Source: SAR324 cluster bacterium (GTDB taxonomy: Bacteria > SAR324 > NAC60-12). From it: a stretch of DNA of 56,918 bases. The stretch is from positions 1 to 56,918 of the forward strand of contig JAESQU010000100.1 of assembly GCA_016764995.1 (NCBI GenBank). The letters are read 5' to 3'. Both the position numbers and the translations under genes were made by a program. Positions 1,595 through 33,553 of this stretch are shown piece by piece. Numbering within the stretch: the first letter of the stretch is position 1; every line of letters starts with the position of its first letter. Below the pieces are notes generated by a model. That model saw nothing but the letters and a program-made list of their open reading frames with translations, had not been told where the DNA came from and did no database searches.

Positions 1595-1640
1595 AACGGA
1601 AAGACACAATCTAATTGAAAACCTTCAACCTGTTTAAATC

Positions 1641-3437
1641 TTGGAAAAAGAAGTCAACGACTGGGAATTATTCCAGCGGTTTCTCGTTTACGTGCGTCCA
1701 CACTGGAAAAGTATGGCACTTGGAATGGGAACTGTCCCGTTTTCGATTGGAGCAACATTGTTGCTTCCATGGCTCATCATACGAATTATTGATGATCATG
1801 TTATGCCAGGAGACATGGACGGCTTGATGCAGATGGTGACTCTGATGGCAGGAGCAGTTGCTTTAGGTTATTTTTCAGATTCGATTTATACATTTACCCT
1901 CCAAAAAACAGGCCAGTTAGCAATCAGTGCAATGCGCAGTGATCTCTATGCGCATATCCTTTCTATGCCGCGCTCATTCTTTGATCAACGTCCGATCGGA
2001 GTTGTTTTGACGCGCCTCACAAGTGACATGGAGGCCCTCAACGATTCCCTGGCAATTGGCGTACTTTCCATTTTCACAGACTTCTTGAAAACAATTGCTC
2101 TGCTTGTTTTGTTGATTACTCTCAGTTGGAAACTCACACTGGTTGTATTGCTGATTTTACCGCCGATTTATTTTGTCAGTAATTTTTTACGGACCCGTTT
2201 AAGGTATTATTACAACCTCACACGAGAAGCACTTGCTGATGCAACTGGTTATTTGCAGGAATGTTTGAACGGTGTTAAAACTATACAGTTATATGCTTCT
2301 GAGCGCAAAGTTCAAAAGGACTTTGAAGAAAAAACAAAACACTTTTTTAATGCACAGTCTCATTCTAATTTTTATGATGCGGCACTTTTTTCAGTAATTG
2401 AAGGAATTACCTCGATTGCACTCGCCTTGATGATCTGGTATGGTTCACAGCAAATATTGGCAGGTATAGTCTCAATTGGAGTTTTGGTCGGTTTCATCAA
2501 CACACTCAATCGTATTTTTGTGCCGATTCGTGAATTTACTCAACAAATTTCTGTTTTCCAACGCTCACTTTCTTCACTGGAAAATATTGATAAATTATTT
2601 AGAGAAATTCCTGAAGATCAGGATACAGAATTGGTTTCACAAAAATTCACCACAAAAGAACTGCTGGAGCGTTTTCAGAATTTTGAAGAATTGAAATTTG
2701 AGAATGTTCATTTCCGTTACACAAAAGATGATCCGTGGGTTTTGCAGGGAGTTTCGTTTAGTGTCAGCAAAGGTGATCGTGTAGCAATCGTCGGAGCAAC
2801 CGGTTCCGGAAAATCGACCATTGTCCGCATCCTGACTAGAACCTACACAGGTTACGAAGGATCAATTAAAATAAATGGTGTGGAACTGAACGAAATTTCA
2901 CGGGATCATTTGCTGCGGATGATTGCACTGATGCAGCAAGAATCTTACTTGTTTGAGGAAAGTATCAACTTCAACATCGCACTGAATCGTCAGGAAATTT
3001 CTCCGGAAAAAGTCAGTAAAGCTGCGGAATACGTTTATGCTCATGAATTTATAGATGATTTGCCAGGACAATATGAATATAAATTGCTTGAAGGTGGAAG
3101 AAATCTTTCCGAGGGTCAAGGGCGTTTAATTGTTTTTGCACGAGCGTTGGCTGGAGAAAGTGATTTAATTGTCTTGGATGAGGCAACAAGCTCGGTGGAT
3201 TCTGTGACGGAAAATCTTATTCAAAAAGCAATTGAACGTATTTTTCGAGACAAAACTGTGATTGCCATTGCACATCGACTTAGTACTATCCGGAATTCGG
3301 ATTTGATCCTGGTTATGGATAATGGAAAAATTGTTGAGCGCGGTTCACATGGTGAATTGCTGGAACAAAATGGAATTTACGCAGGCCTTGTTGAAACTCT
3401 GGAAAATGAAACAGAACTTGAAAATGTTAATGTTTAA
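1641..3437 (+). CDS. ABC exporter, fused permease/ATPase (MsbA/type I exporter-like)
   Basis: The N-terminal half is hydrophobic (about 6 TM). Walker A GATGSGKST, ABC signature LSEGQGRL and Walker B LIVLDEATS are present. A TTG start is assumed. Confidence 0.85.
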   Translation: MEKEVNDWELFQRFLVYVRPHWKSMALGMGTVPFSIGATLLLPWLIIRIIDDHVMPGDMDGLMQMVTLMAGAVALGYFSDSIYTFTLQKTGQLAISAMRSDLYAHILSMPRSFFDQRPIGVVLTRLTSDMEALNDSLAIGVLSIFTDFLKTIALLVLLITLSWKLTLVVLLILPPIYFVSNFLRTRLRYYYNLTREALADATGYLQECLNGVKTIQLYASERKVQKDFEEKTKHFFNAQSHSNFYDAALFSVIEGITSIALALMIWYGSQQILAGIVSIGVLVGFINTLNRIFVPIREFTQQISVFQRSLSSLENIDKLFREIPEDQDTELVSQKFTTKELLERFQNFEELKFENVHFRYTKDDPWVLQGVSFSVSKGDRVAIVGATGSGKSTIVRILTRTYTGYEGSIKINGVELNEISRDHLLRMIALMQQESYLFEESINFNIALNRQEISPEKVSKAAEYVYAHEFIDDLPGQYEYKLLEGGRNLSEGQGRLIVFARALAGESDLIVLDEATSSVDSVTENLIQKAIERIFRDKTVIAIAHRLSTIRNSDLILVMDNGKIVERGSHGELLEQNGIYAGLVETLENETELENVNV

Positions 3438-3563
3438 AATGACGCAAAATAAAAAAATGTAAAATAATTACATTTATTACTTGCGTTTTCTTTAATTACT
3501 GTCAGACTACAAAGATTCTCTCTTCAAGTAGAAGAGTTTTTTTAATTAATATATAAGGTCACA

Positions 3564-3758
3564 ATGGCAACAGGCAAAGTAAAATGGTTTAACGAACGCA
3601 AAGGTTATGGATTCATTGAGCAGGAGTCCGGAAAAGACTTGTTCGTTCATCATTCTGAGGTCCGCGGGGGATATCTCAGAGAAGGAGAAAACGTGGAATT
3701 CGAAATTGGAGAAGGACAAAAAGGTCCTTGTGCGGTAAGTGTGCAAACTGCCTCATAA
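3564..3758 (+). CDS. cspA: Cold-shock protein (CSD family)
   Basis: 64 aa with RNP1/RNP2 motifs: [14 protein letters not shown] and DLFVHHSEV. Confidence 0.92.
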
Positions 3759-3783
3759 TTCATTTTAGAATAATCATTATCCT

Positions 3784-3830
3784 GACGGGATGTCTGCACA
3801 AGCGGTCATCCCGTTTTTTTTGTTTTTTTT
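3784..3830 (+). terminator. Rho-independent terminator after csp
   Basis: 8-bp stem ACGGGATG/CATCCCGT followed by TTTTTTTTGTTTTTTTTT. Confidence 0.7.
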
Positions 3831-3854
3831 TAAGTTCAATCAGTTGGCACAAAC

Positions 3855-4769
3855 ATGAATCAACTTCGTGAAGATTTTAAAGAATTTACAGAGGCACTGT
3901 TAACCTGGAAATATTGGTGGATGCTGGTAGTACTGGCTTTCGGTTGTTTTGTTTTCAGTAGCGTGGTTAACGGAATTCTTATTCCTCACCATTTTTTCGC
4001 AGGAGGCCTGACCGGTTTAGGTTTGTTGTTTTATGACTCTATCAAAGAGTTTCTTCCTTTCAGTTTGTTGTATGCCTTGATGAATGTTCCAATATTTATT
4101 ATTGGTTTTCGTGAGTTTTCGTTGAAATTCATTCTGACTTCACTGATAGGAATGGGGCTTTACACAGTAAGTTTGGAATTGACAGAGGGATTTGAAATAG
4201 CAATTAAGGACCCTATGTTGTCTGCAATTTTTGGTGGAGTACTGGCAGGATTCAGTACAGGCTTCTATTTGAGCTTGGGCGGCTCAGTTGGTGGTCTGGA
4301 TATTGTGGGAACTGTGATCAAAAAACGTTTTGCAATTCCAATTGGAACAGTTTTTAATATGGTCAACTTTTTAGTTCTTACCAGCAATGCCTACCTTTAT
4401 GATCTTGAAACCGCACTCTTTACGGGCGTATTCATGTATGTTTTTACATGGAGCATGCAAAAGGGACAGATAGGATTTTCTCAACGAAAATCTGTTTTCA
4501 TCATTTCCTCCAAGCCGGAAGAAGTTGGAGAAAAGGTGTTGAAAAAACTAGACCGCGGTTTTACTTATTTGCATGCATCAGGAGGTTATGCCGGGGAAGA
4601 TAAACGGGTTATTTATACCGTAATAAATCTTTTGGAATTAGGGCGGCTCAAAGAGTATTTGTTTAAGACAGATCCGGATGCCTTTATTTCAGTGCAAAAC
4701 ACAGGAGATGTGATTGGAAAACGCTTTCTAACCTGGGAAGATGAAGGATACAGGACTAGAAAAAAGTAA
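3855..4769 (+). CDS. YitT-family membrane protein with C-terminal DUF2179-like domain
   Basis: About 5-6 TM segments with repeated GGxxG (GGLTGLG, GGSVGGLD). The soluble C-terminal about 90 aa (FTYLHASGGY...FISV) is typical of YitT proteins. Confidence 0.6.
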   Translation: MNQLREDFKEFTEALLTWKYWWMLVVLAFGCFVFSSVVNGILIPHHFFAGGLTGLGLLFYDSIKEFLPFSLLYALMNVPIFIIGFREFSLKFILTSLIGMGLYTVSLELTEGFEIAIKDPMLSAIFGGVLAGFSTGFYLSLGGSVGGLDIVGTVIKKRFAIPIGTVFNMVNFLVLTSNAYLYDLETALFTGVFMYVFTWSMQKGQIGFSQRKSVFIISSKPEEVGEKVLKKLDRGFTYLHASGGYAGEDKRVIYTVINLLELGRLKEYLFKTDPDAFISVQNTGDVIGKRFLTWEDEGYRTRKK

Positions 4770-4848
4770 AGCACAGCAATTTTTTTTTAACTCTTTTCCA
4801 AAGTTGAGTATTTTTTGAAGATGAATTTATTATTTTGTCCAGTTTAAA

Positions 4849-5283
4849 TCACTTCTGTTTTTCTGCTGCTTTTAAGATGATTCCTCTGGTCATTGCCAGC
4901 AATGAAAGTGAGCTGAGTTCGGTCAATTTGAACCACTTTACCGCGTACGCATCATCACCTGACCGGCATTTTCCTGAAAGCCATTGACCCTGAAAATCTA
5001 CCAGAGTGTAATGGTAGAGAATTTTACCCTGCTTGTCAGGGACAATATAATCCACCACATCTAGCAGAGCAAGTTGTTCAACTTTGACTCCTGTTTCTTC
5101 GTCTAATTCCCTCTGAACAGCTTGTATTACGGTTTCACCAAGCCGCTGTTTTCCTCCGGGTATGCTCCACTGTCCTTTGTTTGGAGCCTTTCCTCGCTGC
5201 ACCAGCAACACTTCTTCTCCGCGTAAAACAACGACTCCAACTCCAACAAAGGGACGCTCTGGATATTCTCGGTCATTACTCAT
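4849..5283 (-). CDS. NUDIX hydrolase
   Basis: Nudix box GGKQRLGETVIQAVQRELDEETG. The start overlaps the upstream gene's stop by 4 nt. Confidence 0.85.
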   Translation of the reverse strand: MSNDREYPERPFVGVGVVVLRGEEVLLVQRGKAPNKGQWSIPGGKQRLGETVIQAVQRELDEETGVKVEQLALLDVVDYIVPDKQGKILYHYTLVDFQGQWLSGKCRSGDDAYAVKWFKLTELSSLSLLAMTRGIILKAAEKQK

Positions 5284-5726
5284 TCATAACCCTTTAACCA
5301 ATTATGCAATGCAAGACGTGCCGCTTGCTCTTCCACACCTTCTATGACGGTGATTCCACCTTCTCTTAATATCCGTACTCCCTTACCATTCACTTTTGGA
5401 TGCGGATCCCTAATTGCCAGTACAACGTGTGATATTTGTTTTTCTACTATAGTTTTGGCGCAGGAAGGCGTTCTACCATGGAAAGAACAGGGCTCAACCG
5501 TACAGTAAAGTGTTGATCCTGCCAGAGAATGTCCCAATGCTTCCGCATTCTGAATCGCGTCCGCTTCTGCGTGAAGCCCACCGACAGCATGTGTATAACC
5601 TTTTCCAAGTACTGTGTCATCATTGACAATCACACAACCGACCCAGGGATTATCGCCGGTTTTATTTCGTGCCTTTTCTCCGAGTTGCAAAGCAAGAAGC
5701 ATAAATTCTCGTTTAATTTCAGTCAT
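5280..5726 (-). CDS. ribD: Riboflavin-pathway pyrimidine deaminase, RibD deaminase domain only (no reductase domain)
   Basis: HAEADAI, then TVEPCSFHGRTPSC and IRDPHPKVNGKG, match the RibD N-terminal domain (EPCSHHGRTPPC / DPNPxVxGxG). The ORF stops at 148 aa. Confidence 0.75.
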   Translation of the reverse strand: MTEIKREFMLLALQLGEKARNKTGDNPWVGCVIVNDDTVLGKGYTHAVGGLHAEADAIQNAEALGHSLAGSTLYCTVEPCSFHGRTPSCAKTIVEKQISHVVLAIRDPHPKVNGKGVRILREGGITVIEGVEEQAARLALHNWLKGYE

Positions 5727-5839
5727 TAGTAATTTCGGATTTTATTGTAGATCTTAACAAACTCTGCTGCGTATCATTTTTTTCTGCTTGAAATAATTTA
5801 TTTCGGAAAGTATTGGGACAGAAGAAATGGATGTAATTT

Positions 5840-6466
5840 TCAAAAAAGAAATCCGAAACCCCCATTTACTTGATTTGAAAATAATTTTACAGAATCAGTA
5901 AGAATTACGGCTGTACCGTTAAGTTGACTTTGATAATTTTTATATTCGTCGTTATTTTGGCGGTAACCCAATAATATTTCTCCGCCTAAAAATGGTAGAC
6001 CGAAGTTCATAAACAATGCTTCACCGCTACTTCTTTCTGTTAAGTAATTTACTCCACTTGAGTCCAATTCTCCTCGTCCATAGATTAAGCGTCCTGCGCC
6101 CAAAGTAAAACTGAAAGTGCTTCCAATTGTATATGACAAATCCAAGCTGTGCTTCTTGAATTTGTATGAAATTCCTTCCAGACTTCCGCTTGTGCGGATT
6201 GTGCTGTAACCTACTCCGATTCCATTTGCGAACACCAAAATTCCACTGTGTCCGGAGATAGCAAGTTTTTCTGACGCTTTGCTTGTGCCGCGTGTGATTT
6301 CGCTTTCATCTGAAGTTGGAACAAAATAGCGTAAGCGCCAATATTCTTCCGCACCGGCGTAACTTCCGGACAACATCAAAATTACTGTAATGAGGATTAT
6401 TTTTTTTAAAGCCGGCACATTAATAAAACATAAGTTATTTTCGGAAAATTCATTTCTTTCAAACAT
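5840..6466 (-). CDS. Hypothetical secreted protein, possible small outer-membrane beta-barrel
   Basis: Signal-like KKIILITVILMLSGSYAGA. Gly/aromatic-rich alternating segments. C-terminal GGFGFLF ends in Phe like an OMP beta-signal. Confidence 0.4.
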   Translation of the reverse strand: MFERNEFSENNLCFINVPALKKIILITVILMLSGSYAGAEEYWRLRYFVPTSDESEITRGTSKASEKLAISGHSGILVFANGIGVGYSTIRTSGSLEGISYKFKKHSLDLSYTIGSTFSFTLGAGRLIYGRGELDSSGVNYLTERSSGEALFMNFGLPFLGGEILLGYRQNNDEYKNYQSQLNGTAVILTDSVKLFSNQVNGGFGFLF

Positions 6467-8268: not shown

Positions 8269-9288
8269 TTAATTTTTTTCTATGTTTTGTTGCAAGCATA
8301 ATTCTTTTCCAGATTTGCGGATTTTCCATTCTTGCGAAAGACGAAATTCCCATTGACTTCTTCCTGTACTGATTAGCTCAATAACTTTTTGCAATTTTCG
8401 GTAATTCAAGGCAAGTCTTGTTTTCGCGGTGATGAACCTATGCAATATTTCTCGCTGGAGTATTGCGTCGGCTTGTTCCAAATCCGCGAGAGACAAGACA
8501 GTTGAAGTTTCGTTATCGAAATTACCGGAGTTTTGTTCCCATTTATCATAAGCTGAATCCAGCCACTCATGCAGAAGTTGACTTTGTTCACTCAAATCAT
8601 TGATACGTGAGTGCAGGCCATGACGGGTTAATTCCTCCAATAGTGGAATCAGTTCCAGTCGCACTCGATTACGTAAGTATGTCGCGCTTTGATTGGAAGT
8701 ATCTTCCATCCAGTTCAGCTTATTACTGTTTAAATAATCTTGCAGTTCAGATTTTCCGCAATTGAGCAAAGGCCGAATAAATGGTGCGTTTTTCCAGCGC
8801 ATGCCTTGCAAATTTGAAATATGCGATCCACGAAGCCATTTAAGGATTATCGTTTCAGTTTGGTCATCAGCGTGATGTCCTGTTGCAATGCAGCCGCCTC
8901 CGAGAAATTCAAGCAGCTTGAGGGCCTCATCGATCCGCCAATCACGCGCGGATTCCTGTAAACCGGATTGTCCGGATTTAAGGTGCTTAGCGGTTTTAAA
9001 ATGGAAAGGGAGTTTATATTGATCGGCCAGAGATTTTACAAAGGCCTGCTCCTGTTTTGCTTCTGGACGAAGCTGATGATTGAAATGCAGAATTTGTAAT
9101 TCCAAACAAAGAAGTGTGCTGAGACGCTGGAGTAAATGGAGTAGTGCAACTGAGTCACTCCCACCACTAACGCAGACTACAACTTGGAGAGGCGTTTTTG
9201 CTGTACGTCTGTTTTTATTCTTTACCGCTGTGTCATTCAGTTGATAATGATTCCAGTTTTTTTGAATTTTTTGTAGAAGATTATCCAC
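8269..9288 (-). CDS. tilS: tRNA(Ile)-lysidine synthetase
   Basis: PP-loop VCVSGGSDSVALLHLL, then ATGHHADDQTET. Confidence 0.85.
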   Translation of the reverse strand: MDNLLQKIQKNWNHYQLNDTAVKNKNRRTAKTPLQVVVCVSGGSDSVALLHLLQRLSTLLCLELQILHFNHQLRPEAKQEQAFVKSLADQYKLPFHFKTAKHLKSGQSGLQESARDWRIDEALKLLEFLGGGCIATGHHADDQTETIILKWLRGSHISNLQGMRWKNAPFIRPLLNCGKSELQDYLNSNKLNWMEDTSNQSATYLRNRVRLELIPLLEELTRHGLHSRINDLSEQSQLLHEWLDSAYDKWEQNSGNFDNETSTVLSLADLEQADAILQREILHRFITAKTRLALNYRKLQKVIELISTGRSQWEFRLSQEWKIRKSGKELCLQQNIEKN

Positions 9289-9318
9289 AGGAAGATCCGA
9301 GTCTAACTTACTTAAAAT

Positions 9319-10560
9319 TTATTGTCTGAATGTTTTCTCTTCCTTGTGGCCAAGTTGAGTCAATGAACTTTCTAAACGTTTCTGGAGTGGAATAAAACTA
9401 TCATCAACAGTCACAGCAGCATCCACAGAATCTTTACCTAATTTGACCAAAGTCATAACACCATCTTTAGTAAAGCGCATCAAATCGCGGTGAATATAAC
9501 CGTAATGAGTGATGTTTCCAAACTCAGTTAAAACAGGAAGATCAGCTTTTTTAGGAGTTGATTTTGATGTAAGTTTGAGTGCTCTGCGGTAAGCCACCAC
9601 CGCAAGATTGAACACCGGGGCCATGTTTTCACGGGCAGTGCGGTCACCACTTTCAATCCGTAACATTTGATATTTCAATGCCTGCATTTGAATACGACCT
9701 TCCATGAGAAGAGGATAAGTCAGCTTATTGTCAATCCGGCCCAGCCGTTTTGCCAAGTCAAGTCCAGCACTCTGAAGCAAGGGTATTTGCCTCAGCATTT
9801 CAATTGCCTGGACTGCTTTGCTGATGATCATATTCTGTTTGTTTGGATTTACTTTTTCTGTTTCGCCACTAAAAAAAGAACTGTGCGCTTTTCCTCCATG
9901 GGTCAGTTCCTCAATTTCTTCATGTGAAATTGAGGCAGTCATCTTGTCCTTTATGTTATGAATGACTGTTTCACAATTTTCGATCAAAGACTCTGCAATT
10001 TGAATTTCTGTTTTTGCGGACTTCATATCATGAACATTATCATCTTCATCAAAATCTTTATTATCTACATCAATCCCGCTCATGTTTACATTTTTCAATT
10101 CTTTTGATCTGATGGCCATCATTTTATGTTTGTGAAGATTTGCCAGACGCTCCAAATAAGAACGATATGTATGTACAACCAACTGCAGAAAGGTAGGAGA
10201 AATATCACCAAGATAAATGGGAATTGACGCCTGCAGCATCATGTTTAGATGAGTATGAAGGTGATGGTCTTTGCGGTCTGCCATCACGGCGTTCACTATG
10301 CTCAAACGTGCCAGGGGATTGGTCGGATCGCTATCTAATTGCTTGATTAACTTTGAAACCTTTTTGTTATTTGGAACATCACTTTGCAGGATACTGCCGT
10401 CAACATGCGGGTTTTCATGTTTGCCGCCAAAGATTTTTTTTACTCCGGATTTTTTATTATGCTCTCTTATATCCGTAATAATTTTAGCTATTTGATTCTG
10501 GAAGCTAATGAAATTTACATTTGGAGTTTTAGGATTTTCTACCAGTTCTTTGGCGGCCAT
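9319..10560 (-). CDS. Hypothetical protein, predicted mostly helical; co-oriented partner of the giant upstream gene
   Basis: 413-aa uninterrupted ORF lying 134 nt downstream of the giant gene and 30 nt upstream of tilS. No motif recognised. Confidence 0.7.
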   Translation of the reverse strand: MAAKELVENPKTPNVNFISFQNQIAKIITDIREHNKKSGVKKIFGGKHENPHVDGSILQSDVPNNKKVSKLIKQLDSDPTNPLARLSIVNAVMADRKDHHLHTHLNMMLQASIPIYLGDISPTFLQLVVHTYRSYLERLANLHKHKMMAIRSKELKNVNMSGIDVDNKDFDEDDNVHDMKSAKTEIQIAESLIENCETVIHNIKDKMTASISHEEIEELTHGGKAHSSFFSGETEKVNPNKQNMIISKAVQAIEMLRQIPLLQSAGLDLAKRLGRIDNKLTYPLLMEGRIQMQALKYQMLRIESGDRTARENMAPVFNLAVVAYRRALKLTSKSTPKKADLPVLTEFGNITHYGYIHRDLMRFTKDGVMTLVKLGKDSVDAAVTVDDSFIPLQKRLESSLTQLGHKEEKTFRQ

Positions 10561-10694
10561 TTTTTAGCTCAGTGGCTTGGTTAAAAATGAAAGCAAATCA
10601 ATTCAGTTGTTTGCATTATTATACGGATTAGACGGCTAAATGGAAACTGTTTTATCATGGCAAATTTAATTACTGATCTTTAAATCTGCCGTTG

Positions 10695-13600
10695 TTAGCC
10701 GTGCATAGATGCTTTGCCGATTTCATCAAATGTTCGACTCATAGGAAAGGGTTTTAAATGCTCGCGTGTGCCAATCGAATTATGGGGCCAGAGCGTGTTG
10801 GCGATGCCATTGAGGTAATTCTGCTGAAATTTTGGTGTTATTGGAAAATTGTAATTTGCGCCGTTGACCCAAATTTGCAGGTGGGGTAGATTTGAGGATC
10901 GTAAAGGAATTTTTAAGGCAGATAAATTTCGCAAGAATAATAGCCGACATTCCTGGCTGTTGAGACGCATAAAAAATTCTGCTAATGCGGAATCACCACC
11001 AATTCTTAATTTTGGTGGTACTTTCTTGATGACAATGTTATGAATATTAAAATTTATCACAAATTGCTCACCAAGATTATCACGTACAATCAGTGAAAGC
11101 GTATCGAGTTTGTTGACATGACAGACCATCAAAATGTCTCGAATGTAGTGCATATTTACCATCAACTCTCGTGATGAAACAGCAAATGGCGAAAAAAAAG
11201 TTTTTATTTTAGTAGCCAAAGTGAATAATGCACCACCTGAGATTGGATTCATCGCAATATCACTATGAATTTGTGCCGCTGGTTTTTCAAAGGTCGAAAG
11301 ATGTTTTCCACCAAAACCGACATAACCGCTAAAAGTACAGCGTGCAATACCCTCCACCAGGTTTGATTCAAACATCGGCATCACATTTTCTGCTCCACTT
11401 GCTCTGCCGGCTTCCTTGTGACTGAGCATTGAACTAAACTGCCACTTTGCGGATTTTCGTAAAAATTCAATCTTTATCCGTGAACGCGGGATGCTCAAAC
11501 TCTTAGAAATCGGCAAGGGTACCTGAAATGGTTTTCGTTCAAAGTTACGTTCAAAATGGAATTTAAAAATCACATTTTCCAATGAATCACCTGCAACCTT
11601 TACTTTCGCGTTTGTGATTGTCTTCCGGACCCAACTTTCCTCCATCTTTAATCCAAACTGACTAAAAAAATCAACAATTTTTCCTTGAACACTTTTTAGT
11701 TTTTGTAATTCCTCATAGACGATCTTGGCCTGCATTTGCTCAATTTTATTGAGGGGGATTTTCCTTTTAAGTTTTACCAGCACCTTCCGGTCTTCAATCG
11801 ACACACGTTGATTGACAACATCAAGCAAAGGACTCAGAAATTCTGTTGCTGTTTCTTTTTCAAAACCTTTCTCGCTAAGCCGTGCCAGCTGATTTGATAT
11901 TTGCTGGAGAGCGCGTGTATGTCCAATTTTGCATAGTTTTTTCTCAACTCGTGTCATTGACTCAAGAAAAAGCTTCTTGAGAATTTTTTCCACTTTGTTA
12001 CCAGCATCATCCCTGCCTTCTGTAAAACGGATTAGTTCACGACGGTCTTCAGGAATAGAGAAAAAAATATTATAAAAATCAACCAATGCTCTGCTACGCC
12101 AAGTCGCGTTTTCATCTTGCCAGAATGCTTTGCCGTCATCTCCGAAGTTTATAACATCAGAAATTCGCATGTGCTGTGCAAAGCAAAAAATAATATTTTT
12201 TTGAGTTTCAGAAAGAGTATTGAGTTCAAAATCCGGTTCTTCTTCTTCTTGTTCATAACTTTCAAAACGTACCAGCATTTCAGTAAATTTCAACCACCAC
12301 GGGTCGAGTTGTAGCGTTGGATAATCTTCTTCCATCTTAATAATCGCGTCAATCAAAGGGCCTTTACGTTGTTCCCGAACAAAATTTCTTCCTTCCGGAT
12401 TCCATAATAAACGAGTGAGACTTGTAGGCAGATCATCTTCCTTGTCAATACAGACAATCATTTCCAACCACCAACAGTTCAGTAAAGCTTTTGGGAGATT
12501 ACGGTGGCTGATTTTCTCACTTTCCCGCAAAAAAATAGGTAGTGCGTGACCCAAAAACATTTCACGAGGAATGATAATTTCTCCCCAATTCGGTAATTTT
12601 CCCAGCACAAAAGTTTCTTTTTCTTCTTCCAGAATTTGTGCCTTTTCAGCAACATTCTGCTTTAGCTGTCCCTCTTCAATTTTCGTTTGAGCAGTTATAT
12701 CTTTTACTTCATATTCTGCAACAAGGTTTTGTTTTAGTGTCCAATCTGCTTCAGGAAAAACACCAATTGATGAGAGAATTTTAAAATTCTTGGGCAAATC
12801 AAAAGGCATCGGAGTAATACCACAGATCATGGCCGCTGGATTAAGGAGAAAATCGTTCAGCATCAACGCATAAGCCATACTTCCTTCTGGAGAAACCAAA
12901 AATGGAGTGTGCTTTCCGTTGCGTTGTTTACGCAAAATGTTTGTAAAAAAATGAATTTCTGTAGTCGGATATTTTTTTGTAAGGTACGCCTCTGCTTGCT
13001 GAATTTTGAGATGCAGTGGATATTCAATTTCAGCTTCCAAATCCTTGGCTTGTCCGTCTGAAAAAGTTTCAATCAACATGACCATCCTGGAACTATATTT
13101 TATTTCCAGTTTTGACATGATTTTCTTTTCCAGCCCATCATCCAGTATTAAATTTTTAGTGCTAAAGTGTTGCTTTAGTACCTTTATTGCTTCTGAAACA
13201 TTGGCGCGTGAAATAAAAGCAACTTGATTGGAAAGGTGTTCAAAAAACTCGTTTAAAAGTAATGACAATTGAGAGTTATTGGTCAAACTATTCAAAAAAC
13301 AAGCATCTTGTTTTTCATCCGGCATAGATTCGGGAGACAAGTTGTTGCCGACCGCAAAGCGCCACAATACCTGGCGCGCACCGGCCTCATCTAGGAAAGT
13401 GTTGCGGTAAAATTGAACTAACCAGTTAAGTACCTTGCCTTTGTTGAATTGCTGCAACGAATACGGGAAACTCATTTTATGTAAATCTCCTCTGTTTTTT
13501 TTGATAAAGGAGAAAAAATTATTAAGTGGAGGCAACAAATCTTCACAATCCGGAAACTTTTTCAAAGTTGTAATGACAGCTCTCAGGAATAATCCATTTT

Positions 13601-14549
13601 GATCTTCTGTGGGTCGATTTTGTAAATGTAATTGAATCAATTTGTGCAGTTCCTTGCGGTAACTGCTGGCAAAGATGAACTCAATTACTCGCAGCTCTTC
13701 TTCGTTTAAGCCTTTACCGCATTTTTCTTTTAAAATCTCAATTGACGATTTTTTTATCGCTATTTGTTCTTTAGCATTCAGGGCATTACGGAAATAATTG
13801 TCATAAAAAGACTCCATCACATTTGCAATCAGTGCAACGAAGAAATCAGCGTCATTCCAACTGAAATTAAATTCCGGATTTGTGTTGATGATAACTTGCG
13901 CATCCATATCCGAATCAGGTTTGTGTCCGATTCCGCCCAAACTTCCAATGGTTGTGAGAGCCTTGATCATCTTTGCTGAGTCTTGTTTGAAATGACTCAC
14001 GAGGTCTGTTCCAGCAAATTCCTGCTCCAGATGAGCATCCATGCCCGCCTCACCCTTGATTGCGGCAGAAGACAAAAATCTTTCTATTCCTTCAATTCCA
14101 TGAATTGCTCCTTTTTGAAAAACATCAAAAGCAATACTGCGCATGACCGGCTTGCCAGCTTCATCAAACTTCCCTGTTTTTTCCTGTACTTCCAATACCG
14201 GCGAATCTTCCGGATTGATATCAAAAAGGAGCATACCTTCAAACATGGTTCGGTGCATTTCTTCATCACAAAGTTCCAGTAAACTTGCTAATCGTAAGCG
14301 GTTTATCCGGCCCATCTCATTAAATTCCCTTTGTGCGTACTCTTTCCATTTTTTCAAATGTTCTGTGTGGTAGGAGTCTCGCAGAGAATCACTGATTTTG
14401 GTGGAACTGAGGGATTGCAACAAAGTTTTAAATCCGCTTGCAGCAAAATCACCTTGAGGATTACATGGTATTTGAGCATTAAACGAACAGAGTAACTCAA
14501 GTTGTCTGTCGAGTTGGGAAAGTGTTTCGGTGCTCAAATCAGTATTCAT
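10695..14549 (-). CDS. Giant (~1285 aa) protein with a Pol-beta-type nucleotidyltransferase motif; class I adenylate-cyclase-like by local similarity
   Basis: IGSLGGIGHKPDSDMDAQVI (D-S-D-M-D at nt 13902-13916) resembles [20 protein letters not shown] of E. coli CyaA. It also resembles the GKLGGxELxxxSDxDL motif of the GlnE in this window. A later EIHFFTNIL...ALMLNDFLLNPAA segment resembles VSFFLID...LLLDEFYRTA. ATG at 14549 (MNTDLSTE) is preferred over the TTG at 14597. Confidence 0.8.
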   Translation of the reverse strand: MNTDLSTETLSQLDRQLELLCSFNAQIPCNPQGDFAASGFKTLLQSLSSTKISDSLRDSYHTEHLKKWKEYAQREFNEMGRINRLRLASLLELCDEEMHRTMFEGMLLFDINPEDSPVLEVQEKTGKFDEAGKPVMRSIAFDVFQKGAIHGIEGIERFLSSAAIKGEAGMDAHLEQEFAGTDLVSHFKQDSAKMIKALTTIGSLGGIGHKPDSDMDAQVIINTNPEFNFSWNDADFFVALIANVMESFYDNYFRNALNAKEQIAIKKSSIEILKEKCGKGLNEEELRVIEFIFASSYRKELHKLIQLHLQNRPTEDQNGLFLRAVITTLKKFPDCEDLLPPLNNFFSFIKKNRGDLHKMSFPYSLQQFNKGKVLNWLVQFYRNTFLDEAGARQVLWRFAVGNNLSPESMPDEKQDACFLNSLTNNSQLSLLLNEFFEHLSNQVAFISRANVSEAIKVLKQHFSTKNLILDDGLEKKIMSKLEIKYSSRMVMLIETFSDGQAKDLEAEIEYPLHLKIQQAEAYLTKKYPTTEIHFFTNILRKQRNGKHTPFLVSPEGSMAYALMLNDFLLNPAAMICGITPMPFDLPKNFKILSSIGVFPEADWTLKQNLVAEYEVKDITAQTKIEEGQLKQNVAEKAQILEEEKETFVLGKLPNWGEIIIPREMFLGHALPIFLRESEKISHRNLPKALLNCWWLEMIVCIDKEDDLPTSLTRLLWNPEGRNFVREQRKGPLIDAIIKMEEDYPTLQLDPWWLKFTEMLVRFESYEQEEEEPDFELNTLSETQKNIIFCFAQHMRISDVINFGDDGKAFWQDENATWRSRALVDFYNIFFSIPEDRRELIRFTEGRDDAGNKVEKILKKLFLESMTRVEKKLCKIGHTRALQQISNQLARLSEKGFEKETATEFLSPLLDVVNQRVSIEDRKVLVKLKRKIPLNKIEQMQAKIVYEELQKLKSVQGKIVDFFSQFGLKMEESWVRKTITNAKVKVAGDSLENVIFKFHFERNFERKPFQVPLPISKSLSIPRSRIKIEFLRKSAKWQFSSMLSHKEAGRASGAENVMPMFESNLVEGIARCTFSGYVGFGGKHLSTFEKPAAQIHSDIAMNPISGGALFTLATKIKTFFSPFAVSSRELMVNMHYIRDILMVCHVNKLDTLSLIVRDNLGEQFVINFNIHNIVIKKVPPKLRIGGDSALAEFFMRLNSQECRLLFLRNLSALKIPLRSSNLPHLQIWVNGANYNFPITPKFQQNYLNGIANTLWPHNSIGTREHLKPFPMSRTFDEIGKASMHG

Positions 14550-26082: not shown

Positions 26083-26664
26083 ATGAGTGAAGAAAAAAAC
26101 GAAGAAAATGGTGATTTGGAAAGTATTGCGAGCAAACTTCTCAAGTCCAGAACAGTTGTTATTTCCCAACAAGTTGACTCAAAATTATCCGCAAAAGTTT
26201 TGAGCCAGTTGGTCTTGTTAGAACAGGAAGGTCCGGAATTACCGATCACGGTTTTTATAAATTCTCCCGGCGGAGAAATATTTTCCGGTTTTGCAATTTA
26301 TGATATGCTCAAATTTATCTCATGTCCAGTCACAACAATTGTGACAGGATTTGCTGCCAGCATGGGATCAATTTTGAGTTTAGCCGCAGACAAAGGTCGA
26401 CGTTTCGCGATGCCTCAGGCAAAAATAATGATTCATCAACCTTTATTAATGGGGTATCAGGGGCGTGCTTCTGAATGTGAAATTCAGGCGCGTGAAATAT
26501 TGAAAACACGTGACCATTTGGTTAAGTTATATGCCGAACAAACAGGAAAAAGCTTTGAAGAAATAAAAAAAGCACTTGATCGTGATAATTGGTTTACTGC
26601 CGAAGAAGCACTAGAATATGGGTTGCTGGACAAGGTTGTGCATTCACGCTCAGAATTAAACTGA
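26083..26664 (+). CDS. clpP: ClpP-family serine protease subunit (orphan, atypical N-terminus)
   Basis: Catalytic triad contexts GFAASMGS, IMIHQP and DRDNWFTAEEALEYGL are present. The N-terminal 15 aa are acidic (MSEEKNEENGDLESI) instead of the usual axial-loop sequence. Confidence 0.85.
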   Translation: MSEEKNEENGDLESIASKLLKSRTVVISQQVDSKLSAKVLSQLVLLEQEGPELPITVFINSPGGEIFSGFAIYDMLKFISCPVTTIVTGFAASMGSILSLAADKGRRFAMPQAKIMIHQPLLMGYQGRASECEIQAREILKTRDHLVKLYAEQTGKSFEEIKKALDRDNWFTAEEALEYGLLDKVVHSRSELN

Positions 26665-26791: not shown

Positions 26792-29092
26792 ATGGCAAAA
26801 AATTTAATTATTGTTGAATCACCGGCTAAAGCCCGTACGATTAGTAAATTCCTGGGTAATGAATACACCGTTACAGCTTCAATGGGGCACGTCCGGGATT
26901 TGCCTTCAAGTAAACTTGGTTTTGATCCAAAAAACGGATTTTCTCCGGAATATGAAATTTCCAAGAATAAGAAAAAAACGGTTGCAGACCTGAAAAAACA
27001 AATTGACAAAAATACTGTCGTTTTTCTTGCAACTGATGAAGACCGTGAAGGAGAAGCCATTTCGTGGCATCTTCTGCAAGCGCTGGGTTTGGAAAAGCGT
27101 CCGGTAAAACGGATAGTCTTTCACGAAATAACTAAGCCTGCAATTCTCCGCGCACTTGAAAATCCCCGGGACGTAGATCAAAATCTGGTTGACGCGCAAC
27201 AGGCTCGTAGAATTTTGGACCGTGCGGTAGGATATGAATTATCGCCGTTACTCTGGAAAAAAATCAAACCGGGGCTTTCCGCAGGAAGGGTGCAAAGTGT
27301 TTCTGTTCATATTTTAGTTGAGCGCGAAAGAGAAATAAGAAAATTTGTGCCTGTAGAATATTGGAAAATTAAAGCGGACTTTGCGGAATTTTCTGCAGAG
27401 TTGAAAAAGCTCAATGGAAAAACCGCAAAAGTAGTCAATGAATCAGAAGCCCTCAGGATCGAAGCCAGTGTGAAGCAAGGAGATTTTGTGGTGACAGAAG
27501 TAGATGAACGAATGACAAACCGAAATCCTGCTGCGCCATTTACAACTTCAACCATTCAGCAGGAAGCTTCAGTCAAGCTGGGGTATTCTGTCAAACGTAC
27601 AATGGTTGTCGCACAACAGCTTTACGAGGGAAATTTTGAAATTCCGGATTACAGCGGTGGTCTCATTACCTATATGCGTACTGATTCAGTGGCACTTGCA
27701 GAACTTGCACTGACTCAGGCACAGGAAGTTATCAGTTCCGAATATGGTGTTAAATTTGGCTTAAAGGAGCCGCGCTTATTTAAGAACCGTACAGCAAACG
27801 CGCAGGAAGCTCACGAAGCAATTCGTCCAGTGGATCTTTCACTCAAACCAAGTGCAGTCAAAGACCATTTGAGTTCCGATCAATTTCGCCTGTACAGTAT
27901 GGTTTGGAAGCGTACTCTTGCTTCACAAATGGCATCCGCTGAAATTGCCCGCACCACTTTGAAAATTGAAGCCGGTGTAAAAAAAGAGTGTCAATTTGTG
28001 GCAAAGGGACAGCGTGTCGTTTTTCCAGGATTCTTGCAGGCTTACACGGAAGCCCTTGAGGGGCAAAATCCTATGGTGGCTGAAAAAGATGTGATCCTTC
28101 CAAAAGTCGAAAAAGATCAACAACTGCCGCTGAAAAAATTAAATCTTGAACAACTGTTTACCAAACCTCCGCCTCGTTATACTGAAGCATCGTTGGTGAA
28201 AAAAATGGAGTCAGAAGGCATCGGTAGACCTTCCACTTATGCACCAACTATCTCAACAATTCAGGATCGTGGTTATGTGGAAGCCACTCCGGAAAAGCAA
28301 CTTAAACCAACATCCATAGGAGAAGTTGTAACAGATTTTCTCACCGACCATTTTGCGGAAATCGTGAATTTGGGATTTACCGCAAAAATAGAACGTAACT
28401 TTGACAGGATTGCAAATGGAGAGGAAAAATGGGTAGAAATGCTGGGGAATTTTTATCAACCGTTTCACCAGAGAGTTGTAGAAAAAGACGAATCTGTTAC
28501 GCGTGCAGAAGTGCTCAAACGACGTGAGTTGGGAACTGATCCTGAAAGTGGAAAACCTGTCAGTGTGAGTATTGGCAGATATGGGCCAATGGTGCAGATT
28601 GGTACTCGCGATGATGAGGAAAAACCGCGATTTGCTTCTTTACCGAGCAATCTTAATCTTAACGAAGTAACTTTCGAAGAAGCAATGGAATGCTTTGCCT
28701 TGCCTCGTACACTGGGCAATTATGAAAACGGCGAAGAAATTATTGTCAATAATGGACGTTTTGGACCTTATGTAAAACTTGGCAAAAATTTTTTCTCACT
28801 GCCTAAAGGTGATGATCCGCTGAAAACCGAGTTGGCACAAGCTGTGGAAATAATCCGCGAAGGATTGGAGAAAAAAGCAAAAAGTACAATTCATGATTTT
28901 GGAGATATTCTTGTCTTGGATGGCCGTTACGGACCATATATAAGGTCTGCTAAAAAAAATTACAAAATACCAAAAGGAGTGGATCCGGTAAGTTTGGACG
29001 AAGCGGCCTGTCTAAAAATTATTGCTGAAGCACCGCCTCCAAAAGGATTTAAAGGAAGAAAAAATAAAACCGCTAAAAAGCAAACGGCATAA
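26792..29092 (+). CDS. topA: DNA topoisomerase I, zinc-ribbon-free C-terminal type
   Basis: Toprim start MAKNLIIVESPAKA, DEDREGEAISWH, and active-site YMRTDS. The C-terminus has GRYGPMVQIG / GRFGPYVKLG / GRYGPYIRSA repeats, no CxxC pairs and a Lys-rich tail. ATG 26792 is preferred over the TTG at 26771. Confidence 0.93.
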   Translation: MAKNLIIVESPAKARTISKFLGNEYTVTASMGHVRDLPSSKLGFDPKNGFSPEYEISKNKKKTVADLKKQIDKNTVVFLATDEDREGEAISWHLLQALGLEKRPVKRIVFHEITKPAILRALENPRDVDQNLVDAQQARRILDRAVGYELSPLLWKKIKPGLSAGRVQSVSVHILVEREREIRKFVPVEYWKIKADFAEFSAELKKLNGKTAKVVNESEALRIEASVKQGDFVVTEVDERMTNRNPAAPFTTSTIQQEASVKLGYSVKRTMVVAQQLYEGNFEIPDYSGGLITYMRTDSVALAELALTQAQEVISSEYGVKFGLKEPRLFKNRTANAQEAHEAIRPVDLSLKPSAVKDHLSSDQFRLYSMVWKRTLASQMASAEIARTTLKIEAGVKKECQFVAKGQRVVFPGFLQAYTEALEGQNPMVAEKDVILPKVEKDQQLPLKKLNLEQLFTKPPPRYTEASLVKKMESEGIGRPSTYAPTISTIQDRGYVEATPEKQLKPTSIGEVVTDFLTDHFAEIVNLGFTAKIERNFDRIANGEEKWVEMLGNFYQPFHQRVVEKDESVTRAEVLKRRELGTDPESGKPVSVSIGRYGPMVQIGTRDDEEKPRFASLPSNLNLNEVTFEEAMECFALPRTLGNYENGEEIIVNNGRFGPYVKLGKNFFSLPKGDDPLKTELAQAVEIIREGLEKKAKSTIHDFGDILVLDGRYGPYIRSAKKNYKIPKGVDPVSLDEAACLKIIAEAPPPKGFKGRKNKTAKKQTA

Positions 29093-30252: not shown

Positions 30253-30648
30253 TTACAGGTTGAATTTTTCAATCAGAAAATCGTCATATTCATCAGCAAT
30301 GACAGCGATGCTGGCAACAATCCATTCCAATTCCTCAGTATCCAATCCTTGAACAGGACGGATATAACTCAAAATCAGGTGTTTATTACGTACCCCAAAA
30401 CTAACTCCTTTTAACTTCAAAGTTCCGTTAAGTTTAAGAATATATTCGTTTATTTCAGAGTTTTGTTGAGGATACTGAAAAAGATTTGCCGCAACGACCA
30501 ATTCCGCGTTATCTTCTAAATTTGTGAGGAAGATTTGAACTTTGACCGAACCACTTACAATCCACCATTCACTGTTACTGACGAACCCCTTTTCCGCTTC
30601 TCCGCAGTTATGGAGAAAGTCGGTTATCATTGTGCTATACTGGTTCAA
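30253..30648 (-). CDS. Hypothetical small acidic protein (YbjN/secretion-chaperone-like fold possible)
   Basis: 131-aa clean ORF. Size, acidity and an alpha-beta pattern are the only basis for the family guess. Confidence 0.5.
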   Translation of the reverse strand: MNQYSTMITDFLHNCGEAEKGFVSNSEWWIVSGSVKVQIFLTNLEDNAELVVAANLFQYPQQNSEINEYILKLNGTLKLKGVSFGVRNKHLILSYIRPVQGLDTEELEWIVASIAVIADEYDDFLIEKFNL

Positions 30649-30715: not shown

Positions 30716-30865
30716 TTATTCGTCAGCCTCGGTTTTATCCGGAAGATAATTAAGCAATTGTGCCGCCAACCCGGCGAAGAGGAATGTCATAACAGAACCC
30801 GGAATGGTGGCAATAAAAATTATCCAGGGAAAGAGAAAGAGATAAAAAATTTGCTCTGAAATCAT
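30716..30865 (-). CDS. Possible 49-aa single-pass membrane peptide (not in ORF track)
   Basis: Hand translation gives MISEQIFYLFLFPWIIFIATIPGSVMTFLFAGLAAQLLNYLPDKTEADE. It has a hydrophobic core and an acidic tail, and lies directly upstream of 30253-30648 on the same strand. Confidence 0.3.
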   Translation of the reverse strand: MISEQIFYLFLFPWIIFIATIPGSVMTFLFAGLAAQLLNYLPDKTEADE

Positions 30866-31313
30866 AATAGTCCCTTTGTTAATGCGAATTGAGGCGGATT
30901 TTTAAGCGCACAGAATTCTTTGGTTTGCAAATTCAACAATACACCTTTATCATAACTTACTAATCAGCGCAAGGTTTAGTCAATCTAATTCACATAAATT
31001 GTGTTAAAAACTGAAACTTACTGAATAATTTATTTTTTTGAAAAGCGAATATCTTAATTATTTTTTAGGAAATGACTCACAGTCTGTCGTCTGACAGCAC
31101 ACAATCAACAGATTGTTTTAGGCTAAGAGTTGATATTTTTACGTTTTTTGCATTCTCTCTGTTAGCTTGTACTTTGTAAATTTCCAGAGGCAATCGATAG
31201 ACTGAAATCATTTTATTGATTAGTTTTCAAACAGAAGAATATTTTAGCTAACTTCTAAATTATTTTCTAGACAAATCCAGTTAAATTCCCCAATTTCTTT
31301 TGAGTTGTAATTC

Positions 31314-32285
31314 ATGGCAGAAAAACAAACCACGCAATTTTATCCTGTTCAGGAAGGATTTATTCCAATCATTAAAATAATCGGTGTCGGTGGAGCCGGA
31401 GGTAATGTGGTCACGCAAATGGCAGAAGAGAATTTTGACCAGGTTGAGACTATTATTTGCAACACTGATGTAAAGGCTTTAAAGCGAAACAAATCACATA
31501 TAAAGATTGAACTCGGAAAAAAACTAACCCGGGGAATGGGCGCAGGTGCGCGTCCGGAAGTGGGAGAAGGTGCTGCTGAAGAGAGCCTCGCGGAAATAGC
31601 TGAGGCTATTGAAGGCGCTAATATGATTTTCATTGCCGCTGGCATGGGCGGAGGAACAGGTACAGGAGCTGCACCGACTATTGCACGTATGGCAAAGGAA
31701 AAGCAAATTCTAACAGTTGGAATTGTTACGATTCCTTTTTCATTTGAGGGTACAAAAAGGAGGAGTGCGGGGCTGGCTGGAGTTGAACGTCTGCGAGAAT
31801 ATACGGATACTTTGCTCGTCATTCCAAACGATAAACTACTAGACGCAAGTACTCAAAATACGAGTTTCCTTGAAGCTTTTCACATGGTTGATTTGGTGCT
31901 GATCAACGCAATCAGAGGCATAACCATGCTGCTTAGTGGAGTTGGAGATATCAATGTCGATTTCGCTGATGTGCAAACCATCATGAAAGGTATGGGTAAG
32001 GCTGTTATCGGCAGAGGTGTAGCAAAGGGCAAGGACAGAGCATTGAATGCAGTAGAAGACGCTTTACATGGTTCTCTCATGGAAGATACGGACATCCGTG
32101 GAGCAAAAGGTATTTTGGTGCATGTGAGCGGACCAAAAGACACCAGTGCTTTTGAAATTCAGGAAGCAATGTCACTTATTGAAGATATGGCAGATGAAGA
32201 TGTTGAGTTGATCTGGGGAGCCACCTTTTCTGACTCTGCAAAGGATGAAGTCACAATGACTGTTATTGCGACCGGATTGTCCTGA
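31314..32285 (+). CDS. FtsZ-family tubulin-like GTPase, core domain only (no C-terminal linker/peptide)
   Basis: IKIIGVGGAGGN, the tubulin signature AAGMGGGTGTGAAP, VIPNDKLL and the T7-loop INVDFADV are present. The ORF ends at TVIATGLS, i.e. at the end of the globular core. Confidence 0.85.
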   Translation: MAEKQTTQFYPVQEGFIPIIKIIGVGGAGGNVVTQMAEENFDQVETIICNTDVKALKRNKSHIKIELGKKLTRGMGAGARPEVGEGAAEESLAEIAEAIEGANMIFIAAGMGGGTGTGAAPTIARMAKEKQILTVGIVTIPFSFEGTKRRSAGLAGVERLREYTDTLLVIPNDKLLDASTQNTSFLEAFHMVDLVLINAIRGITMLLSGVGDINVDFADVQTIMKGMGKAVIGRGVAKGKDRALNAVEDALHGSLMEDTDIRGAKGILVHVSGPKDTSAFEIQEAMSLIEDMADEDVELIWGATFSDSAKDEVTMTVIATGLS

Positions 32286-32334: not shown

Positions 32335-33033
32335 ATGAGTGGAATTCAAGTAAAGCTTTATCAGACAGACAATGGCCCCTGTCCATATCGAGAAGAAAAG
32401 ACTTGGCGAAATCTTTCTTTCCAGACCAGCGAGCTTCCCACAGACGGTTACACTTCTTTACTGAATCAGGGATTTCGGCGCAGTGGTCTTTCCATTTATC
32501 ATCCAGTTTGTTCAGGTTGCCAGTCGTGCATTCCGATTCGTGTCGATGTGCAAAATTTTTCTCAAAACAAAGGACAACGCCGGACATGGCGTAAAAACAA
32601 GGATGTTCGAGTTGAGCATCATCCGCTGGAATTTAACCGGCAGGATTTTGAGCTTTATCAGCGTTATCAGAATGATTGGCACGAACTTGAGATTCCGGTT
32701 GAGGAGAATGAGTATTATGATTTTTTGATTGAATCTCCTGTTCCAACTGAAATTCTTCGTTATTATTTAGGAAACAAACTTATTGGTGTTGGTTGGCTGG
32801 ATCGGTTGCCGGAATTAATCAGTTCCGTTTATTTTGTTTTTGATCCGGAATTTGCTTCAAAACGGCTTGGAGTATTTTCCCTACTCTATGAAATTGAATA
32901 CGCCCGTTTTCTTGATATCCGTTGGTTATATTTGGGATATTGGGTAGAAAGTTCTCCCAAAATGAATTACAAAGCAGATTTTCAGCCTGCCCAAATTTTG
33001 CGGGATTCACGCTGGATACCTTTTAAAGTTTAG
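32335..33033 (+). CDS. bpt: Arginyl/leucyl-tRNA--protein transferase (Bpt/Ate family, N-end rule)
   Basis: CPY near the N-terminus, GFRRSG..YHP.C..CQSC, and the C-terminal acyltransferase part YLGYW. ATG 32335 is preferred. Confidence 0.8.
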   Translation: MSGIQVKLYQTDNGPCPYREEKTWRNLSFQTSELPTDGYTSLLNQGFRRSGLSIYHPVCSGCQSCIPIRVDVQNFSQNKGQRRTWRKNKDVRVEHHPLEFNRQDFELYQRYQNDWHELEIPVEENEYYDFLIESPVPTEILRYYLGNKLIGVGWLDRLPELISSVYFVFDPEFASKRLGVFSLLYEIEYARFLDIRWLYLGYWVESSPKMNYKADFQPAQILRDSRWIPFKV

Positions 33034-33064: not shown

Positions 33065-33553
33065 ATGGCTGATTCCAAAAAAGAGTTTACTCACTTGTCC
33101 GGAGGTGATGTCCCACGGATGGTTGATATTTCTGCTAAATCTGTGACGGAACGTACTGCTGTTGCTGAGGCACGGGTTCATTTGGGACGAGAGCTTGCCG
33201 AATTGCTGAAAGAGTCCGGAAGCACAAAAAAAGGTCCTGTTCTGCAAACTGCTGTGATTGGAGGAATACAAGGCGCGAAGCGGACAGCTGAACTGATTCC
33301 CATGTGTCATCCTCTGCCGCTTTCCGGAGTGGATGTGGATATTGAGTTGGAAGGAGAATATGCTGTAATCCTGGTCACAGCCAAAACCACAGGACGTACC
33401 GGAGTGGAGATGGAAGCCCTCACAGCGGCCTCTGTGGCGGCGCTGACAATCTACGATATGTGCAAGTCCGTCAGCAAGAGTATGGAAATTGAGTCAATTT
33501 GCTTGTTGCAAAAAACTGGGGGAAAATCAGGAGATTACCAGAAACAAAAGTAA
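33065..33553 (+). CDS. moaC: Cyclic pyranopterin monophosphate synthase
   Basis: MVDISAK..TERTA.A, LIPMCHPL, GVEMEALTA.SVAALTIYDM.K. Confidence 0.9.
   Translation: MADSKKEFTHLSGGDVPRMVDISAKSVTERTAVAEARVHLGRELAELLKESGSTKKGPVLQTAVIGGIQGAKRTAELIPMCHPLPLSGVDVDIELEGEYAVILVTAKTTGRTGVEMEALTAASVAALTIYDMCKSVSKSMEIESICLLQKTGGKSGDYQKQK

Follow-up and report, generated by a model that had tools for sequence, protein, structure and literature searches.

In the 56,918-nucleotide stretch of DNA from a SAR324 cluster bacterium that was analyzed here in full (the window), one gene encodes a form of the cell-division protein FtsZ composed of the globular core only, i.e., one with neither the linker nor the C-terminal peptide (D-I/V-P-x-F-L/I-R) that are the mark of an anchored division FtsZ. 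This short FtsZ is a paralogue of a canonical, long-tailed FtsZ found in the same genome, it is conserved and under strong purifying selection, and its gene is linked to bpt. The gene probably encodes a functional, GTPase-competent protein, and in our best-supported model, which we take to be true with somewhat better than even confidence, this protein would co-assemble with the canonical FtsZ and alter the density of membrane tethers or the dynamics of the filaments. The gene is located as follows:

31314–32285, plus strand: short (tail-less) ftsZ paralogue, defined from the open reading frame, Pfam and NCBIfam matches, an AlphaFold2 model and an alignment of orthologues

The product has 323 amino acids followed by a stop, and because the reading frame opens just one codon ahead of the ATG, the start is unambiguous. 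An earlier inspection of the DNA without database searches (the sequence-only reading) had listed GGAGGN, GGGTGTGAAP, NDKLL and NVDFADV as GTPase hallmarks of FtsZ, and all of them are present: GVGGAGGN, GMGGGTGTGAAP, IPNDKLL and NVDFADV are found in the translation. The family searches agree with this assignment. In Pfam, the protein matches Tubulin (PF00091, 1.3e-46) and FtsZ_C (PF12327, 1e-24), and it scores 354.7 bits against the NCBIfam ftsZ equivalog TIGR00065, for which the cut-off is 295.2. The same reading had placed the end of the protein at TVIATGLS, with neither linker nor C-terminal peptide behind it, which is borne out by alignment and by structure prediction. The stop follows two residues past IATG, i.e., past the last core strand. 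Residues 17–322 align to residues 13–317 of Staphylococcus (S.) aureus FtsZ with only one gap, of one residue (E 1e-92), and this segment of the S. aureus protein is the extent of the crystallized globular core. In the AlphaFold2 model (predicted local distance difference test, pLDDT, 88; predicted template-modeling score, pTM, 0.86), residues 1–13 form a disordered N-terminal peptide and the last β-strand, residues 312–322, is also the end of the model. Compared with solved FtsZ structures from B. subtilis, P. aeruginosa and M. tuberculosis, the model gives template-modeling (TM) scores of 0.91–0.97 and root-mean-square deviations of 1.3–1.5 Å. Because the motifs, the family scores, the core-length alignment and the model all agree, the short FtsZ can be described as a bare FtsZ core.

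The catalytic and contact regions are also preserved in relatives. None of the 13 short copies compared has lost motif T1, T3, T4, T5 or T7, and GMGGGTGTG and GVGGAGGN are intact in every one. The T7 loop (NxDxxD) of one FtsZ subunit supplies the missing part of the GTPase site in the subunit that follows it in the filament; the N, D and D of this synergy loop, NVDFADV, are kept in the nine short copies from a family of SAR324 genomes denoted f1.

The assembly that contains the window (2.65 Mb in 224 contigs, 85% complete) harbors a second FtsZ, which is 45% identical to the short one and is encoded on another contig:

Locus L003 (on contig C216), 10479–12275: canonical ftsZ, 598 amino acids, directly after ftsA

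The upstream gene was identified as ftsA from its Pfam domains FtsA and SHS2_FTSA. The canonical protein has an acidic linker of ~270 residues and the C-terminal peptide DIPTFLR; it ends in NLDIPTFLRLRG / ...NLDIPTFLRLRGSNRPRQ, the canonical anchor-binding peptide. The possibility that the short gene is the only ftsZ of the genome is ruled out by this copy, and its status as a paralogue, as proposed in the sequence-only reading, is upheld. A core-only and a full-length FtsZ are therefore found in one genome, the short copy away from the division and cell wall (dcw) cluster. As that reading had also stated, the short ftsZ is not placed after ftsA and no dcw gene is nearby; its flanks are an open reading frame of 49 codons and a YbjN-like gene on one side, and bpt and moaC on the other.

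The canonical ftsA-ftsZ pair is itself found outside a full dcw cluster. No ftsQ or mur genes are seen ahead of it at positions 9189–14395 of locus L003 (contig C216) or at 421–6320 of locus L022. Behind the pair, in family f1 as in its sister family, f2, come genes for two membrane proteins whose C-terminal domains are FHA/YscD-like. The canonical FtsZs of f1 are very long, about 505–680 residues with acidic linkers of ~185–330 residues, while those of f2 have 430–500 residues.

A gene that ends at the core boundary might also be a pseudogene left by truncation, or a version of the canonical ftsZ distorted by errors in assembly or sequencing. Artefacts of this kind do occur, as metagenome assemblies contain FtsZ chimeras joined at the GGGTGTG motif (P0052 and P0092, see below) and one relative (genome G005) carries a broken copy. 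However, among the orthologues retrieved (57–97% identity, 12 genera of family f1), the stop is found at the same position throughout, two to three residues past IATG (...LS, ...LV, ...LPD or ...IPD), the short gene is only 45% identical to the long ftsZ of its own genome, and the short copies form a distinct clade. The ratio of nonsynonymous to synonymous substitution rates (dN/dS) against nine genus members is 0.02–0.04, at dS of about 0.7–1.5. By these comparative data the pseudogene or artefact reading is already refuted, and we regard its probability as negligible. Because the stop is conserved in all orthologues, and with bpt beginning 49 nt further on, read-through or a sequencing error at the stop is ruled out as well, i.e., the early stop is genuine.

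The two kinds of FtsZ are also separated by their C-termini and by phylogeny. All long SAR324 FtsZs retrieved end in D(L/V)D(I/V)PxF(I/L/V)R, a peptide found in none of the short copies. A phylogeny had been suggested along with the sequence-only reading; in the maximum-likelihood tree, all short copies, including four from f2, form one clade (support 100/98*) and all long SAR324 copies form a separate clade (96/99*). The branching among the short clade, the long clade and the FtsZ of Alphaproteobacteria is an unsupported polytomy; no truncated paralogue was among the alphaproteobacterial sequences used. Because the short clade spans both families, the duplication or acquisition from which it arose is older than the split of f1 and f2. 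Judged from these comparisons, the short FtsZ is an old, SAR324-specific orthologous group that coexists with the canonical long-tailed FtsZ.

When only genomes of 80% completeness or more are counted, about 32 of 35 in f1 and 3 of 15 in f2 have a short copy, with 58% identity as the lower limit. Its core diverges slightly faster than that of the canonical protein, with a mean identity of 0.58 as compared to 0.69 for the same genome pairs and core columns within f1, where the pairs are not independent of one another. Twelve positions distinguish the short from the long copies, e.g., N263H, M225I and L208V (E. coli numbering), which we take, from S. aureus inhibitor complexes, to be located in the interdomain cleft.

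These features suggest a mechanism. Because the tail is missing, the short FtsZ would not bind FtsA, nor, lacking both linker and peptide, would it be expected to hold any other peptide-binding anchor. Its nucleotide pocket is retained, as are the T7 catalytic loop and the loops that make the longitudinal contacts, and because these contact loops are intact, the protein should still enter FtsZ filaments. It would then join the division ring by co-polymerizing with the canonical FtsZ, and its presence there would alter tether density at the membrane and/or the turnover and dynamics of the filaments. The short FtsZ would, in other words, modulate division and not drive it.

Truncated FtsZ paralogues encoded outside the dcw cluster are an already recognized kind. 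Like the SAR324 protein, Agrobacterium (A.) tumefaciens FtsZ1 (Atu_4673), the paralogues of other Rhizobiaceae and Phyllobacteriaceae and S. meliloti FtsZ2 have the whole GTPase core and no linker or peptide (10.1101/412759; PMC13732431). They, too, are encoded outside dcw, form a clade of their own, are widely retained and coexist with an essential full-length FtsZ encoded next to ftsA. A. tumefaciens FtsZ1 does not polymerize alone, but co-polymerizes with FtsZ_AT, on which its localization at mid-cell depends (10.1101/412759), and its continuous expression (over-production) inhibits division (PMC13732431). The SAR324 protein differs from this type in its lineage, where the tree does not join the short clade to the alphaproteobacterial FtsZ included, in having zero residual linker (two to three residues past the core), and in its near-universal retention within f1 at a very low dN/dS. 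On the SAR324 side there is also a putative, invariant operon with bpt.

A second parallel is found in plastids of the green lineage, where the set likewise consists of two FtsZs with the anchoring C-terminal peptide on one partner only; according to two reports, FtsZ1 co-assembles with FtsZ2 and raises ring dynamics (PMC3494859; PMC8142252). A peptide-less partner that co-assembles and tunes the ring is what we propose, by analogy, for SAR324. Unlike the SAR324 protein, plastid FtsZ1 still has a linker, carries a C-terminal motif of another kind, is needed for normal division and stems from a separate duplication. FtsZ duplications that gave rise to truncated paralogues are treated in the literature as independent events, of which at least five are cited, and why such paralogues are kept is still an open question (PMC13732431). 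A search of the literature for SAR324 together with FtsZ yielded no relevant paper.

Four points weigh against co-assembly as the role of the short FtsZ. The argument for it is built solely from motif conservation and from independently duplicated analogues. The clade-specific substitutions described above could equally mean that self-assembly is altered or lost. Near-universal retention together with the very low dN/dS suggests a role weightier than that of the dispensable A. tumefaciens FtsZ1. Finally, a pure ring modulator leaves unexplained the invariant link of the gene to bpt.

This link is seen in the genes that follow the short ftsZ:

32335–33033, plus strand: bpt, with ATE_N and ATE_C domains, NCBIfam PRK01305 "arginyltransferase" family, probable start ATG at 32335
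33065–33553, plus strand: moaC, which follows bpt only in the sub-clade composed of genera g1, g2, g3, g5 and g25

The PRK01305 family is of the bacterial Asp/Glu-specific Leu-transferase type. The gap between the ftsZ stop and the bpt start is 49 nt, in which no terminator is predicted. Among 41 related genomes, bpt is found in 21, and in all 21 it is a single-copy gene that follows the short ftsZ directly and shares its contig and strand. This adjacency spans 12 genera and three flank contexts: [YbjN-like<] ftsZ-bpt-moaC in g1, g2, g3, g5 and g25; clpS< >ftsZ-bpt-tgt in g4, g7, g8, g23 and the contig carrying P0066 (sub-clade B); and other flanks in g22, g24 and the contig carrying P0057, where the ftsZ stop overlaps the bpt start. 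The pair is a conserved unit in which bpt is the one invariant partner and no incidental neighbor. Because the adjacency is conserved in all 21 bpt-bearing relatives, which is good evidence, ftsZ and bpt are likely to form an operon, with bpt as the probable partner in co-transcription; here, moaC is probably co-transcribed with the two.

The clpS gene beside the short ftsZ of sub-clade B is a second copy in these genomes, divergently oriented and always adjacent:

Contig C71 of genome G020, 112258–112494; contig C1 of G023, 364608–364844; contig C122 of G024, 28800–29036; locus L046, 3435–3728; loci L052 and L055: extra clpS of sub-clade B

This gene order brings in a different reading, in which the function of the short FtsZ is bound up with the Leu/N-degron pathway and the operon reflects that link beyond mere co-expression. 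We consider this unlikely. The ClpX degrons of canonical FtsZ are located in the tail, and in one variant Bpt, ClpS and ClpAP would act on the short FtsZ as a substrate and set its level, in place of these degrons. In another variant, it would be a scaffold or regulator that positions the Bpt, ClpS and ClpAP enzymes. Such a tie would fit the constancy of bpt behind the short ftsZ across differing flanks and the presence of the extra clpS in sub-clade B, as well as the case of G023, where bpt is lost and clpS-ftsZ is kept (its congener G042 keeps all three genes). It would also fit the genome of the window, where a housekeeping clpS-clpA pair and aat are found on other contigs, and family f2 (G025–G040), in which the short ftsZ is a rare gene, found a few kb away from ftsA-ftsZ. 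In the 16 f2 genomes searched, neither bpt nor a convincing clpS was found (two matches at E about 1e-5), and the ClpS/Bpt branch of the pathway seems confined to f1 within this order.

The linkage is, however, an association seen in one family, circumstantial as a functional link and inflated because of shared ancestry within that family, and a clpS beside bpt is unremarkable on its own. Neither does the N-terminus of the short FtsZ resemble a conserved acidic or N-degron-like signal: a conserved M-A/T-E/D start as a Bpt-type pre-N-degron is ruled out by the variable N-termini of the orthologues (MAEKQ..., MEAS..., MINGF..., MNGFL..., MGQD...). In a full-text literature search for FtsZ with ClpS, N-degron or ClpAP, or Bpt with the N-end rule, no title or abstract connected Bpt and FtsZ. 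The second FtsZ of a further family, f7 (380–415 residues), gives no independent support, because neither bpt nor clpS is nearby in any of the three copies examined. We know of no physiological client of Bpt. If the tie were real, the short ftsZ-bpt(-clpS) unit would be a previously unrecognized coupling between a tail-less FtsZ and the Leu/N-degron pathway, and the short FtsZ would be a candidate for such a client.

The short FtsZ might instead form filaments of its own for a task other than cytokinesis, attached through an anchor that binds the core, as in the case of FtsZm of Magnetospirillum gryphiswaldense. The gene for FtsZm is part of the magnetosome operon mamXY. No magnetosome genes flank the SAR324 gene, for which the fixed neighbor is bpt; as the sequence-only reading had said of the window, none are seen there, nor among the neighbors examined in the 12 genera of relatives, the rest of the genome not having been searched for mam genes. 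FtsZm is similar to the SAR324 protein in being truncated, in its size and in coexisting with a generic FtsZ, and it serves biomineralization under certain growth conditions (10.1101/412759). As an analogy, the comparison with tail-less paralogues of Alphaproteobacteria (FtsZm, named in the sequence-only reading, and FtsZ1) is apt. Separate filaments would be consistent with the position of the gene outside any division cluster in f1, with the clade-specific substitutions at the surface and in the cleft and with a retention stricter than that of known dispensable paralogues. We nevertheless consider them rather improbable: no conserved neighbor is fit to be an anchor or cargo, as the YbjN-like gene and the 49-codon frame adjoin the short ftsZ in some genera only, genes for magnetosomes or organelles are not seen in the vicinity, and in f2 a distance of just a few kb separates the orthologue from ftsA-ftsZ. 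Co-assembly with the canonical FtsZ remains the model that we favor.

In that model, transcription would start at a conserved promoter of sigma-70-like type located ~360 nt ahead of the gene, within a long spacer with the following features:

30866–31313, no strand: AT-rich divergent intergenic region of 448 bp, 30% GC, mostly poorly conserved and with no detectable structure
30716–30865, minus strand: divergent open reading frame for a hydrophobic protein of 49 amino acids, 77–92% column identity, its start codon forming the left end of the spacer
30925–30953, plus strand: predicted sigma-70-like promoter, TTGCAA-17 nt-TATCAT, from a promoter scan and conservation
31294–31313, plus strand: translation-initiation region (TTTTGAGTTGTAATTC ahead of the ATG), 87% column identity, with TTGAG(T/C)TG nearly invariant

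The spacer contains no open reading frame longer than 44 amino acids. Its best conserved block, 30914–30953 (82–95% column identity among ten genus members), contains the predicted promoter, which would probably give a 5′ untranslated region (UTR) of about 350–360 nt, long but unstructured. Also conserved are a 19-nt block at 30970–30988, just past the -10 element, and a small palindrome at ~30895–30911.

In the sequence-only reading, the spacer was described as a 448-bp non-coding leader with two hairpins that could belong to a structured element. The length and the two hairpins (31084–31097 and 31101–31116) are as described; the structured leader is not upheld. A riboswitch-like leader that controls the short ftsZ would account for the length of the spacer, for the far-upstream promoter with its ~360-nt 5′ UTR and for the conserved 19-nt block downstream of the -10 element. 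Against it, an Rfam scan of the spacer returned no significant family and the putative leader of 359 nt folds no better than shuffled sequences (minimum free energy z = -0.57). The hairpins occur at chance level, with six 5-bp stems where shuffles give 5.3 ± 2.8 and one 6-bp stem where 1.5 are expected. The stretch that contains them is the least conserved part of the spacer (37–47% column identity among the ten genus members) and is deleted in one relative, and the length of the spacer differs by more than 200 nt among relatives. This reading is largely refuted, and we consider it very improbable. Because the structure tests are null and the promoter block and the ribosome-binding region are conserved, the spacer is best described as an ordinary divergent promoter region.

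The palindrome at 30895–30911, just upstream of the -35 element, reads GCGGATTTTTAAGCGC here and ACGGTTTTTTAACCGT in relatives, and its pairing is kept within the genus through changes on both arms, e.g., GACGGTT/AACCGTC as compared to GGTGGTT/AACCGCC. It is no terminator, because no T-run follows it on either strand; it could be an operator or part of the 5′ UTR of the divergent 49-codon frame. The latter is context only, with no functional link shown to the short ftsZ. Further out, the YbjN/TY-Chap1-like gene (30253–30648, minus strand; 131 amino acids, 69–87% amino-acid identity across genera) adjoins the short ftsZ only in some genera and lies about 2 kb off in g3. A ClpP paralogue (26083–26664, plus strand), 5–6 kb upstream of ftsZ-bpt, scores 240 bits against NF009205, an NCBIfam model of a ClpP subfamily (cut-off, 228), and falls below the clpP equivalog cut-off.

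Two apparent exceptions among the short FtsZs were rejected as assembly chimeras, namely P0052 (514 amino acids, ENA contig of 2.3 kb), which seemed to be a long-tailed FtsZ of the short clade, and P0092 (locus L058, ENA contig of 6.1 kb, coverage 1.8x), which seemed to be a short FtsZ heading a dcw-like cluster by a YbjN-like gene. In both cases the break falls directly after the universal GGGTGTGAAP: ahead of it, identity to short FtsZs is about 95% (P0052) or about 70% (P0092), and behind it about 35–45%. The broken copy in G005 (contig C1, 419127–420082; locus L041) departs from the others at a comparable point, and a local mis-join seems likelier there than decay.

Other FtsZ copies were also seen. 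In G020, a third FtsZ on contig C73 (27994–28911) has 452 amino acids as extracted (open frame of 461) and carries a C-terminal peptide. G024 has FtsZ-like copies of 380 amino acids (C30, 6675–7595; open frame of 386) and 302 amino acids (C130, 206–1066; open frame of 328; 33% identity), and two genera of f7 (G066–G072) have second FtsZ copies with open frames of 379–415 amino acids. Neither bpt nor clpS is found near those examined among these copies (G020, G024 and f7). Annotation pipelines label both SAR324 genes "cell division protein FtsZ". Because the two share this name, and because assemblers create chimeras at GGGTGTG, the two copies should be told apart whenever division genes of uncultured marine bacteria are surveyed.

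What is new here is the order-level age of the short-FtsZ orthologous group and the strength of selection on it, the negative result for a structured leader, the invariant linkage to bpt and the presence of clpS in one sub-clade. SAR324 provides an independent and unusually clean case of a truncated FtsZ, with no residual linker, near-universal retention in one family and purifying selection about as strong as that on the essential copy. The fixed partner bpt, together with a second clpS in some genera, suggests a testable link between the composition of the division ring and regulated proteolysis.

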